Source: an uncultured Woeseia sp.
GTDB taxonomy: Bacteria; Pseudomonadota; Gammaproteobacteria; Steroidobacterales; UBA11654
Direction of reading: 5' to 3'
Assembly (NCBI GenBank): GCA_964454905.1
Contig: CAYVTR010000004.1
Location: 7,309-71,308 of the forward strand
Length of the DNA stretch: 64,000 nt
The notes beneath the pieces are model-generated. The model had not been told where the DNA came from, made no database searches, and worked only from the letters and a program-made list of their open reading frames with translations. A program made the position numbers and the translations under genes. The first letter of the stretch is position 1; each line of letters opens with the position of its first letter. This document shows positions 44,744-47,991 of this stretch, piece after piece.

Positions 44744-45328
44744 ATGTCAACACTCCATTTCACATATTCGACTATGAATGCTGGGAAATCTACAGCACTT
44801 CTACAGGCTAATCATGGTTATCAGGAAAGAGGTATGCATACCATGATCTTTACTTCAGCTAGGGATGATCGTTATGGTGACTCTGAAATTGTTTCGAGGA
44901 TTGGATTAAGAGCTGATGCTGAAACTTTCTCAGAATCAGATAATTTATTTAATATAGTAAAAGCAAATAACGACAATACGCCTCTTCATTGTGTATTAAT
45001 TGATGAAGCTCAATTTCTTACCAAGGAACAAGTTTTACAATTAGGACAAATAGTTGATCAATTAAATATCACTGTTCTTACTTATGGGATTAGAACAGAT
45101 TTTCAGGGAGAATTATTTGATGGCAGCAAATATCTATTAGCATGGGCTGACAGATTAAAAGAATTAAGAGCCGTGTGCCACTGTGGGAACAAAGCCACTA
45201 TGATCATAAGGGTAGATGATAAGGGTGAAATTATACGAGAAGGTCAACAGATTGATATAGGCGGTAATGAGAAATATCTTTCCCTCTGCCGAAAGCATTT
45301 CCATGAAGGAGCAATAAGAACAGATTAA
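44744..45328 (+). CDS. tdk: thymidine kinase
   Basis: P-loop MNAGKST, DEAQF, and a C-terminal zinc-type CHCG...LCRKH motif. 194 aa. Confidence 0.93.
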   Translation: MSTLHFTYSTMNAGKSTALLQANHGYQERGMHTMIFTSARDDRYGDSEIVSRIGLRADAETFSESDNLFNIVKANNDNTPLHCVLIDEAQFLTKEQVLQLGQIVDQLNITVLTYGIRTDFQGELFDGSKYLLAWADRLKELRAVCHCGNKATMIIRVDDKGEIIREGQQIDIGGNEKYLSLCRKHFHEGAIRTD

Positions 45329-46581
45329 GAGATAACACCTACTACTAAGCCAGTAAAACACGAGGCTAACGTGGCTGCAATAAGCGCTTTACCACTCACC
45401 GATATTAAGTCATCTTTTCGATTGGGTATCATCGTACCAATCCCACTTAATAGAATGCCAACGCTCGATAGATTAGCAAAACCACAGAGGGCATAGAGCA
45501 TAATAATACGACTTTTCTCAGATAAAGCATTTGCATCAATCCCAGATAAGTTAATGTATGCAACAAACTCATTAAGTATAAATTTCACGCCCAGTAAAGA
45601 ACCTGCCAATTGTATTTCTGATTGTGGAATACCCATACACCATGCAATGGGTGCAAAAATCCACCCTGCAATTCGTTCAAGTGTCACAGGTTCTCCCATC
45701 ACAGGAGGCAATATATACTCAAGTCCATAATTTGCTAAGCTGACAATTGTAATCAGTACAAGAAGTAGAGCAGCAATATTGAGAGTTATTTGAAGACCAT
45801 CTGCTGTCCCTGATGTTAATGCATCCATGGTGCTTCTATATAGTTTTGATTTTTCAATCTCACTTTGATCTTCAGTTTTTTTATCACTTGGCATCATGAT
45901 ATTGGCATACATAATTGCAGCTGGTACCGAAATAATTGATGCAGTTAGAAAATGTCCAATCAGGTTAGTCTCATAAAGACCTGAAAGCATTGTCACGAAA
46001 ACAACCATGACTCCACCTGATATGGTGGACATACCCACAGTCATGAGAACTAATAATTCATGTTTAGTCATTTTATTTAAGTAAGGCCTGACCAATAAAG
46101 GTGCTTCAACCTGTCCAAAAATGATGTTAGCAGTCGCACTTAAACCTACTGGTCCTCCTACATTCAGAGGTTTTTTAAATATTGTGGCAATGATTTTGAT
46201 GACGAAGGGTAGAATTCTCCAATGCCAAAAAATAGCTGATAAAGCAGAGACCACTATAATCAACATTAAACCTGAGAATATAAAAATATTAGCAAAAGCA
46301 GGATCTATTACTTCAAATGGTTTTGGAGCCCCTTCTGCTAGATAACCAAAAACAAATCCTGTGCCTTTGTCAGTCGCATCTTTTAAGGCTAAAACACCTT
46401 GTGATAGGGAATTAAACATATTTGTGATAAGCGGTACTTTAATTAGTAAAAAGGCCAGCAAGAATTGCAAGACAATAGCATTAGTTAGATAGAACAGGTT
46501 TATTTTCTTTTTATTAGTAGAGAAAATAGCACCTAGAAATATAAGGATTAATCCTCCTATTGTTACCTGTATGTGTTCCAT
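45325..46581 (-). CDS. NupC-family (CNT) nucleoside transporter
   Basis: 418-aa polytopic protein with C-terminal CGFANLSSVGILLSGIG block typical of concentrative nucleoside transporters. Confidence 0.8.
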   Translation of the reverse strand: MEHIQVTIGGLILIFLGAIFSTNKKKINLFYLTNAIVLQFLLAFLLIKVPLITNMFNSLSQGVLALKDATDKGTGFVFGYLAEGAPKPFEVIDPAFANIFIFSGLMLIIVVSALSAIFWHWRILPFVIKIIATIFKKPLNVGGPVGLSATANIIFGQVEAPLLVRPYLNKMTKHELLVLMTVGMSTISGGVMVVFVTMLSGLYETNLIGHFLTASIISVPAAIMYANIMMPSDKKTEDQSEIEKSKLYRSTMDALTSGTADGLQITLNIAALLLVLITIVSLANYGLEYILPPVMGEPVTLERIAGWIFAPIAWCMGIPQSEIQLAGSLLGVKFILNEFVAYINLSGIDANALSEKSRIIMLYALCGFANLSSVGILLSGIGTMIPNRKDDLISVSGKALIAATLASCFTGLVVGVIS

Positions 46582-46593
46582 AATTTAACTAGT

Positions 46594-47520
46594 CTACAGT
46601 AGTTTAATTTCATATAAACGTTGTTGAAGAAAATCATCTGCCATTATTCCTTCTGGATAAAGATTAGGATGATCTTTATCAATGCATGTTGAGAGTGTTT
46701 CTATGAACCAGTCAGGGTTTGGATGTAAAAAAAATGGGATGGAATAACGTGATGAGTTCTTAGCAATATCAGAGGGAGTGGTAACCCTATGAAGCACAGA
46801 GGGTAAACGGTTATTAGTGAATCTTTCCAGCATATCACCAATATTGCATACAACAGTACTTTGAGGAGTATCTATAGGATGCCATTCATCATTAACAAAA
46901 ATTTCAAGTCCTGGTTTATTGCCTCCAATTAATAGAGTAATAAGATTAATATCACCATGAGCTCCGGATCTCTCACCATTATCTTCTACAACAGGTGGGT
47001 AGTGTATCGCTCTTAAAACGCTATTCCCATTATTGATATGTGGTTCAAAAAACCCCTGTTCAAGATCTAAATATAAAGCAACTGCTTCCATTAGCTCTTT
47101 TCCAAACTGATCAAAAGCATTAAACAGTTCAATGATTTTTATTCGAAATTCTTTAATTTCGTCTGCATACTGGTTATCAAACATATATTTTCTATATGGA
47201 TGATTAATTGGTAACTCTCTTCCCATTTGCCAGAATTCTTTTAAGTCGGCATGTTGCCCACCCTTAGGTGTTTCAATACGATAAGGTGTATAACCTCTTG
47301 CGCCCCCTAGATCTTTTAAAAAATATTTCATTTTAATATCATCATTTAGTGAAAAAAATGTTGAGAACATTTCAATTGATTCACTGACTAAGCTATTTGA
47401 TACAGGGTGATCATTAATGCCACAGAAACCTGTTAATTTATGATTTTTACCAAGCTGATGTGCAAAAGCCGCTGGGTCTTTATCCCAGAGTTCATAACTA
47501 ATGGTCTCGACTATACTCAT
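46594..47520 (-). CDS. 2-oxoglutarate/Fe(II)-dependent oxygenase (isopenicillin-N-synthase-like fold), substrate unknown
   Basis: 308 aa. HxD (GAHGDIN) plus distal His (LPSVLHRV) facial-triad context and RYSIPFF (2OG-binding Arg/Ser context). N-terminal DIOX_N-like region. Confidence 0.75.
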   Translation of the reverse strand: MSIVETISYELWDKDPAAFAHQLGKNHKLTGFCGINDHPVSNSLVSESIEMFSTFFSLNDDIKMKYFLKDLGGARGYTPYRIETPKGGQHADLKEFWQMGRELPINHPYRKYMFDNQYADEIKEFRIKIIELFNAFDQFGKELMEAVALYLDLEQGFFEPHINNGNSVLRAIHYPPVVEDNGERSGAHGDINLITLLIGGNKPGLEIFVNDEWHPIDTPQSTVVCNIGDMLERFTNNRLPSVLHRVTTPSDIAKNSSRYSIPFFLHPNPDWFIETLSTCIDKDHPNLYPEGIMADDFLQQRLYEIKLL

Positions 47521-47991
47521 TTATAATTTTGTTGGGTTTGGTGCGTCACCATAAATTTCTTTGGGGTCAAAAGCTTTCTCTGAGTCTGTAAATTCAAGCT
47601 TAACTTTACCATTTTTAAAGTTAATTCTTCGGTAAAAACAAGTTCTATAGCCAACGTGACAGCTTGCCCCACCGATTACTTCAACTTTAGCCCAGATCGC
47701 ATCTTGATCATCATCAATTTTAAGTTCCACCACATTTTGGTAGAAACCACTGGTTGCACCCTTATGCCAAATAAGATTCCTGCTGCGACTGAAATAATGC
47801 ATTTGACCTGTGGTAATAGTTTGTTTCAAAGCATCTGAGTTCATATAACCGTGCATCAGAAGTTCACCTGATCCATAATCTGTTGCTACAACAGGTATTA
47901 AGCCTTTTGCATCGAATTTAGGAGCTAACTCTGATCCTTCCTCAATCTGTTGGATGTTCAGCCTTTTAGAAAATAAGTTTTTTGTATTCAA
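47521..47991 (-). CDS. hisI: phosphoribosyl-AMP cyclohydrolase (stand-alone HisI)
   Basis: GLIPVVATD..GELLMHGYMN..AL..T, YFSRSRNLIWHKGATSG and DDDQDAIW..V...GASCHVGYRTCF blocks. Confidence 0.85.
   Translation of the reverse strand: MNTKNLFSKRLNIQQIEEGSELAPKFDAKGLIPVVATDYGSGELLMHGYMNSDALKQTITTGQMHYFSRSRNLIWHKGATSGFYQNVVELKIDDDQDAIWAKVEVIGGASCHVGYRTCFYRRINFKNGKVKLEFTDSEKAFDPKEIYGDAPNPTKL

Follow-up and report, generated by a model that had tools for sequence, protein, structure and literature searches.

Deoxyribonucleoside 2'-hydroxylase activity is known from Neurospora and Rhodotorula, and this fungal activity is that of a 2-oxoglutarate (2OG) dioxygenase. In Escherichia coli, clusters of the psuK-psuG-psuT type pair a PfkB kinase with a concentrative nucleoside transporter (CNT). 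Among marine bacteria, a close described system is the collocated pair of tdk (thymidine kinase) and a CNT gene, reported as the genes for thymidine usage in nearly all genomes of SAR86; the pair has been read as serving the uptake of thymidine exuded by Prochlorococcus, and SAR86 was concluded to assimilate thymidine without interconversion, the usual pyrimidine interconversion genes being lacking (Braakman et al. 2025, PMC11698098). Neither 'oxygenase' nor 'oxoglutarate' appears as a word in that paper. Here, we analyze a 64,000-nucleotide stretch of DNA from an uncultured Woeseia sp. (GenBank assembly GCA_964454905.1, contig CAYVTR010000004.1; hereafter, the window), in which hisI, the gene of an Fe(II)/2OG oxygenase, and a CNT gene follow one another and converge on tdk. 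A sequence-only reading of the window had proposed that these genes form a bacterial module for the uptake and modification of nucleosides. In total, the observations outlined below make a composite reading probable, i.e., an ordinary hisI gene packed together with a separate, inserted three-gene nucleoside-salvage cassette.

Like the SAR86 pair, the window has collocated tdk and CNT genes, here with overlapping stop codons, in a small-genome marine gammaproteobacterium (assembly of 1.49 Mb in 40 contigs, 95% complete). It differs from that pair in two respects: the paper gives two genes, to which the window adds an oxygenase gene predicted to be cotranscribed (PMC11698098), and the nearest relatives of the window are Woeseia/Woeseiaceae, two SAR86-labelled loci (L049 and L050) being 51 to 53% identical. 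The three domains of the transporter (Nucleos_tra2_N, Gate, and Nucleos_tra2_C) all score above the Pfam cutoffs, and its 300.7 bits against TIGR00804 lie below the cutoff of 442, as for a divergent CNT; it is the single match of a CNT search of the genome. The tdk product matches PF00265 (2e-54) and the NF003300 equivalog (281.9 bits; cutoff, 195). Pfam and NCBIfam agree with the families to which the sequence-only reading had assigned hisI, the oxygenase, the transporter, and tdk. Elsewhere in the genome, thyA is split over two contig ends (C14:9-425 and C2:107577-108032, covering model positions 1-139 and 125-265), which is an assembly break and not a broken gene, and thyX was not found in the genome. 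Given that thyA is present, salvage would supplement de novo synthesis of thymidine monophosphate (dTMP).

Both genera in the family of the window keep the oxygenase-CNT-tdk cassette in every genome sampled (16 of 16 in one and 3 of 3 in the other). Orthologous oxygenases, 42 to 50% identical, occur in Steroidobacteraceae, a high-GC family that belongs to the order of the window, whose genomes measure 2.4 to 4.4 Mb with a guanine-plus-cytosine content (GC) of 0.55 to 0.70. There, the genes are co-directional, as oxy>cnt>tdk at 7 loci, oxy>tdk at 5, and oxy>cnt at 1 (oxy and cnt denote the oxygenase and transporter genes), and the flanks are unrelated: a DDAH-like gene, plsY, birA, a 2-oxoacid:ferredoxin oxidoreductase gene, yegS, and genes of TonB-dependent receptors. 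A search of the 43 sampled Steroidobacteraceae genomes found tdk in 12; the oxygenase is present in each of these. A wider scan with one genome per species gave 80 further loci, the neighbor genes of high-GC loci being taken from open reading frame (ORF) calls filtered by GC at third codon positions and seeded by tblastn matches. The SAR86-labelled loci, from more distant relatives of low GC, read oxy>cnt> <tdk, with a divergent PfkB kinase gene and a TonB-dependent receptor gene. The reversed order, cnt>oxy, occurs in Sphingomonadales/alphaproteobacterial loci (L060, L072, L119, and L125), in a Chromatiaceae metagenome-assembled genome (L110), and in a gammaproteobacterium (L123); these loci use a different CNT clade, 28 to 42% identical. 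In the two Sphingomonadales loci L060 and L072, a PfkB kinase gene lies upstream (pfkB>cnt>oxy). This pairing of PfkB and CNT recalls the psuK-psuG-psuT clusters; the pfkB>cnt>oxy loci differ from these in having an oxygenase in place of the PsuG glycosidase and a PfkB protein that scores below curated cutoffs.

The linkage is not confined to one branch of the family. On a tree of 101 oxygenases, which came from a quick search and has weak deep branches, CNT- or tdk-linked oxygenases are spread over four or more distinct clades, and no fewer than six changes of the linked/unlinked label are required. In a sample of 400 genomes of the phylum, 36 of the 37 with the oxygenase have CNT, versus 92 of the 363 without it; the figures for tdk are 28 of 37 and 82 of 363. 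Based on conservation across distant lineages, on this co-occurrence, and on the finding that none of the close relatives has a known non-nucleoside substrate, the idea of an uptake-and-modification module is supported for the oxygenase, CNT, and tdk, with their varied flanks and gene orders, and fails for hisI, which has to be left out of it. Thus, we consider it likely that the oxygenase is functionally coupled to nucleoside uptake.

Several points weigh against such a coupling. The co-occurrence counts come from approximately nine families, within which related genomes are not independent, and CNT and tdk co-occur with each other as well. No CNT or tdk gene lies within two genes of the oxygenase at 67 of the 101 loci; in Xanthomonadales, the oxygenase gene stands between glmM and tpiA, and in Caulobacterales, it stands among OmpA-like, Tad, and K+-efflux genes. 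One alphaproteobacterial family of the phylum sample, which supplies 8 of the 9 oxygenase carriers that lack tdk, has the oxygenase and CNT without tdk, and the named Caulobacter control also has CNT and lacks tdk; because such carriers exist, Tdk is not an obligatory partner of the oxygenase. No member of the oxygenase family has a demonstrated substrate. Can the oxygenase, then, be a housekeeping or stress enzyme unrelated to nucleosides, adjacent to CNT and tdk through inherited synteny and hitchhiking in a mobile cassette? The many loci among unrelated genes, such as glmM-oxy-tpiA, and the confounding of phylum-wide co-occurrence by phylogeny would fit this explanation, as would the activity of the nearest characterized relatives, the ethylene-forming enzyme class, on 2OG and arginine and not on nucleosides. 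We nonetheless consider it unlikely, given that CNT and/or a nucleoside-type kinase accompanies the oxygenase in four architectures with unrelated flanks and opposite gene orders, that linked copies are spread over at least four clades, that nearly every oxygenase-positive genome of the phylum sample has CNT against a background of 25%, and that tdk in Steroidobacteraceae is found only where the oxygenase is present.

The surroundings of the cassette offer some further observations. A search for informative neighbors in the Xanthomonadales, Caulobacterales, and Steroidobacteraceae flanks found only housekeeping genes and TonB-dependent receptors. One such receptor, of approximately 1060 amino acids (aa) with a CarboxypepD_reg N-terminal domain, recurs beside the cassette in Steroidobacteraceae, SAR86-labelled, and Sphingosinicella loci (L037, L039, L040, L042, L043, L049, L050, and L072), and the genome of the window has a 54% identical copy on another contig (C31:4151-7231). 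This receptor is a candidate for the outer membrane entry step of nucleosides or DNA fragments. Separately, a contig titled 'Candidatus Planktophila lacus' (Actinobacteria; CALQLF020000069.1, L084) has a GC of 0.64 and an oxy>cnt>tdk arrangement of the Steroidobacteraceae type, and is probably mis-binned.

The oxygenase itself has an intact catalytic center. Its facial triad (H188, D190, and H244) and 2OG-binding residues (R258 and S260) are invariant in 11 orthologues and align to H214, D216, H271, R286, and S288 of fungal thymine 7-hydroxylase (T7H); together with the domains, these residues agree with the earlier assignment to the IPNS-like 2OG oxygenases. The protein receives no NCBIfam name. 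Its best solved relative is PDB 3OOX (2.5e-90, 306 bits), a structural-genomics entry with full-length, orthologue-level similarity that shares the family-specific motifs GARGY.P and KEFW..GR; it differs in that the Caulobacter-type orthologues do not adjoin CNT or tdk. 3OOX was placed among enzymes of undefined function in a 2023 review (PMC10467617), a listing that also counts against assigning the window oxygenase to nucleosides, and beyond it we found no function for the family in the literature on 3OOX, on bacterial clusters of tdk, CNT, and 2OG dioxygenase genes, or on the deoxyribonucleoside 2'-hydroxylase gene. The next relatives are an enzyme of the ethylene/succinate-forming class (104 bits), 3ON7 (100 bits), and T7H (86 bits). 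The sequence-only reading had allowed that the oxygenase might cluster with enzymes of established non-nucleoside substrates; among the close relatives, we found no known substrate of that kind.

A second copy of the oxygenase, 61% identical, lies elsewhere in the genome (contig C20:4195-5127; L023); on the tree, it groups within the clade of the window family. Its neighbor genes encode a C-N hydrolase, an Amidohydro_3 protein, and a molybdopterin oxidoreductase, and a copy of this type was not seen in the other 15 sampled genomes of the genus. Contamination as the source of C20 is unsupported by its GC, which is 0.383 versus an assembly range of 0.34 to 0.42.

Which reaction might the oxygenase catalyze? 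That its substrates belong to the imported nucleosides or nucleoside monophosphates seems to us somewhat probable; that it can be called outright a bacterial nucleoside/nucleotide oxygenase, e.g., a deoxynucleoside 2'-hydroxylase or a thymidine 5-methyl oxidase, is a tentative proposal, and each specific reaction, taken singly, is improbable. Pyrimidine deoxyribonucleoside 2'-hydroxylation would convert thymidine to 5-methyluridine and deoxyuridine to uridine and would shunt imported deoxynucleosides to the ribonucleotide pool, with Tdk serving DNA. This reaction would need no partner enzyme, and the cassette contains only a transporter and a kinase besides the oxygenase; the neighboring PfkB protein of the Sphingomonadales and SAR86-labelled loci, which resembles ribokinases and nucleoside kinases, would fit a ribonucleoside or ribose product, and the fungal activity belongs to a 2OG dioxygenase (background in PMC4787775). 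Against these points stand the lack of a PfkB orthologue in the genome of the window, the lack of the usual pyrimidine interconversion genes in SAR86 (PMC11698098), and the purely inferential character of the proposal, the comparison including no proven 2'-hydroxylase sequence. We hold this version to be unlikely.

The other candidate reaction is a T7H-like stepwise oxidation of the 5-methyl group, on thymidine or dTMP instead of free thymine. T7H (PDB 5C3O-5C3S) is a detectable relative (2e-23), although the alignment covers only residues 90-303; the two proteins share the IPNS-like fold class, the HxD...H triad, and RxS, and both stand in a context of pyrimidine salvage. Mutagenesis found R190, F292, Y217, E122, and N294 of T7H, among other residues, to be important (PMC4787775). 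R190, which contacts 2OG and C5, and the stacking residue F292, which with Y217 sandwiches the substrate, are kept as R170 and F264, both of which are generic to the oxygenase clade. Y217 and E122 are replaced by I191 and Q98, N294 is replaced by His, and the N87 region is not alignable, which weighs against a T7H-like substrate. A further difference is that the fungal pathway occurs in organisms without thymidine kinase, whereas the oxygenase gene of the window travels with tdk. The kinship to T7H that had been suggested from sequence alone therefore survives as a distant relationship, and orthology is rejected, given 86 bits versus 306 for 3OOX and a substrate site that is partly lost. For 5-methyl oxidation, the kept residues and the linkage to tdk would fit; the changed residues, the generic nature of R170 and F264, a T7H score far under that of 3OOX, and the finding of no iso-orotate-decarboxylase-like partner in any neighborhood examined speak against it, and we consider it quite improbable. 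We rank 2'-hydroxylation above it because that reaction needs no partner enzyme and fits the PfkB neighbor, and because no decarboxylase partner was seen.

We now turn to hisI, which had been placed within the module. Its product matches PF01502 (PRA-CH; 2e-29, 101.5 bits), exceeds the cutoff of the NF000768 HisI equivalog (151.4 bits; cutoff, 126), and matches 1ZPS, the monofunctional HisI of Methanothermobacter, over the full-length domain (1e-31). A PRA-CH search of the whole genome returns the window gene as its single match, and neither a second hisI nor a fused hisIE was found in the 95% complete assembly. The rest of the pathway lies on contig C10, as yerC-hisG-hisD-hisC-hisB (bifunctional)-hisH-hisA-hisF-hisE, without hisI; hisE is a stand-alone gene of 101 aa that overlaps the end of hisF. 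The hisI gene of the window thus supplies the missing step of an otherwise complete pathway, as it is the sole copy and the C10 operon lacks one. Consistent with the original description, it has no hisE fusion, and we found no other his gene within the window; its place outside the his operon is one of its differences from known monofunctional HisI. It is almost certainly an ordinary phosphoribosyl-AMP (PR-AMP) cyclohydrolase gene of histidine synthesis, present in single copy and standing outside the nucleoside module, which was the simpler of the two explanations offered at first. In passing, the his operon is headed by a YerC/YecD TrpR-like gene, which abuts hisG (C10:20000-31500, L010, positions 9383-9685, minus strand), and in one relative (G005), its orthologue stands at the operon tail, after hisI (L126); the encoded protein is a possible his regulator, its gene moving with the operon ends.

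One feature of the protein counts against its being ordinary. In comparison with 1ZPS, whose zinc-site cysteines are C86, C102, and C109, HisI of the window keeps the Asp triad assigned to Mg (D93/D95/D97) and the CH...C motif (C111, H112, and C118); in place of the first zinc-ligand Cys of the archaeal enzyme (C86, in DCD) it has Asp (D94, in IDDDQDA), so that the stretch corresponding to DCDxD (window positions 47698-47715, hisI residues 93-98) lacks this ligand, and PR-AMP cyclohydrolase activity is predicted. The equivalent of C86 is Asp in every HisI of the window family, copies in his operons included. The stand-alone HisI proteins of seven related families read DDDQDC, with a Cys four residues later, and this Cys, too, is lost in the window family, where Ala or Thr replaces it. 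HisI of this family may have an altered or zinc-sparing metal site, as judged from these alignments of the window protein and loci L126-L149.

The conservation of the linkage among hisI, the oxygenase, and CNT, on which the earlier proposal leaned, proved to differ between its parts. Most genomes of the window genus retain the block lptE-tdk> <cnt-oxy-hisI cysS>, as does one member of the sister genus, and three genomes break it. In both G005 and G017, the oxygenase gene abuts cysS; the sole hisI of G005 (75% identical) stands after hisE in the his operon, and that of G017 (65% identical) is convergent on hisE. In G018, a sister-genus genome that is 88% complete, the oxygenase, CNT, and tdk genes are intact, and neither hisI nor hisA/hisF was found, which may reflect a histidine auxotroph in the family or an assembly gap. 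Because these three genomes keep the oxygenase-CNT pair while hisI moves or was not found, hisI follows the histidine pathway and not the oxygenase. We rejected the idea that hisI is a xenologue, as the G005 and G017 copies are as similar as other orthologues and have the same DDDQD motif.

How did the arrangement come about? Sixty sampled genomes of the order, among which the unpublished genome G035 enters this and the other tallies only as one sampled genome with no conclusion depending on it, contain two HisI types, a fused hisIE inside hisA-hisF-hisIE operons and the stand-alone type, which tblastn found in seven further families at 58 to 70% identity to HisI of the window. Stand-alone hisI adjoins cysS in 18 of 18 genomes, with no tdk, CNT, or oxygenase gene between them; the two genes are divergent in 15 and co-directional in 3 (L138, L144, and L145). 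On the far side of hisI, lptE was detected in 13 of these genomes, which gives the layout lptE> <hisI cysS> without the cassette (L132-L149), and in one 1.6-Mb genome, lptE and hisI are 58 nt apart. Since this empty layout occurs in seven other families, the position of hisI is old and the cassette is the newcomer. We infer that the tdk> <cnt-oxy cassette was inserted into the convergent lptE/hisI junction. A hisI-oxygenase link of functional meaning, as first proposed, thus finds no support, because the hisI-cysS-lptE site predates the cassette, and at 94 orthologous oxygenase loci outside the family, hisI was not found within a distance of 6 kb. That a HisI-fold cyclohydrolase serves in the module, acting with the oxygenase in the ring opening of imported purine nucleosides or nucleotides, for which the abutting same-strand junction and the unusual Asp at the zinc site could be cited, is extremely unlikely given a single hisI with an otherwise complete his pathway, orthologues in G005 and G017 that share the DDDQD motif and stand within or next to the his operon, the older position, the 94 loci, and a genome in which tight junctions are the norm.

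The junctions themselves were described correctly from the outset and are borne out by the ORFs: the hisI stop codon (TAA, 47523-47521) directly abuts the ATG of the oxygenase gene with a 0-nt gap, 12 nt separate the end of the oxygenase gene from the CNT start, and TTAA at 45325-45328 is common to the CNT and tdk stops. The outer flanks are leuS-lptE at the left and cysS-sufE at the right. Across the whole assembly, the gaps between same-strand neighbors are 0 nt or less in 28% of cases and 12 nt or less in 52%, with a median of approximately 11 nt, and 35% of convergent gene pairs overlap or abut; these statistics come from a simple ORF call, in which longest-start calling shifts the gaps slightly downwards. 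We therefore rejected tight spacing as a sign of shared function, short gaps being the default of this 1.49-Mb genome and spacing being uninformative in it.

Do hisI, the oxygenase gene, and the CNT gene nevertheless share a transcript? Consensus scans, which are weak evidence, found neither a sigma-70-like minus-strand site between the hisI and CNT starts nor a minus-strand terminator-like site separating the three genes, and in relatives without hisI at the site, the oxygenase gene directly abuts the spacer divergent from cysS. The three genes are probably transcribed together from the 69-nt spacer between cysS and hisI, with hisI as the first gene. It must be set against this prediction that it draws on spacing and on these scans. 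The features of the locus are collected in Table 1.

Table 1. Genes and spacer of the hisI-oxygenase-CNT-tdk locus, in window coordinates
Feature	Position	Strand	Description
hisI	47991..47521	-	TTG start, 156 aa; monofunctional phosphoribosyl-AMP cyclohydrolase; PF01502, NF000768
Fe(II)/2-oxoglutarate oxygenase, IPNS-like clade	47520..46594	-	ATG start, 308 aa; DIOX_N + 2OG-FeII_Oxy
CNT/NupC-family transporter	46581..45325	-	418 aa; Nucleos_tra2_N, Gate, Nucleos_tra2_C
tdk, thymidine kinase	44744..45328	+	194 aa; PF00265, NF003300; convergent on CNT
lptE, ancestral left flank of insertion site	44256..44741	+	PF04390
cysS, ancestral right flank, divergent partner of hisI	48061..49428	+	TIGR00435, 496 bits
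hisI-cysS divergent spacer, 69 nt	47992..48060	.	Presumed promoter region of the putative hisI-oxygenase-CNT transcript

Taken together, these findings suggest the following model for the composite locus. Stand-alone hisI has long lain outside the his operon in this order, divergent from cysS and convergent on lptE. The oxygenase-CNT-tdk cassette would then have entered the lptE-hisI junction in this family of pelagic bacteria with small genomes, where tdk now reads with lptE, and the oxygenase and CNT genes read behind hisI, probably via the hisI promoter; genome compaction would have closed the gaps to 0 and 12 nt. In this model, CNT would import a pyrimidine (deoxy)nucleoside, for which thymidine is the published candidate in the case of the SAR86 tdk-CNT pairs, and Tdk would trap thymidine as dTMP. 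We speculate that the Fe(II)/2OG oxygenase would hydroxylate the imported nucleoside or a nucleoside monophosphate. Our first guess would be the oxidation of a pyrimidine deoxynucleoside, with 2'-hydroxylation to the ribonucleoside favored over oxidation of the thymine 5-methyl group; with either oxidation, scavenged thymidine or deoxyuridine could feed into other pyrimidines.

The case of hisI is an example of how the compaction of streamlined genomes makes operon-like junctions between unrelated genes. Thymidine uptake by tdk and CNT is the published basis of pyrimidine cross-feeding between Prochlorococcus and SAR86-type heterotrophs, and the classic thymidine-incorporation assay likewise depends on this uptake. 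A conserved oxygenase with intact catalytic residues beside CNT suggests an unrecognized oxidative step in bacterial nucleoside salvage, and, with a solved crystal structure for an orthologue (3OOX) and carriers that can be cultured (relatives of Caulobacter, Sphingomonas, and Xanthomonas), the question is directly testable. If the suggestion is true, a nucleoside oxygenase would extend to bacteria a class of reaction known until now from fungi alone, and abundant marine thymidine scavengers, together with many soil Alpha- and Gammaproteobacteria, could turn imported thymidine or deoxyuridine into other pyrimidines, which would contradict the published view of plankton that only assimilate thymidine.

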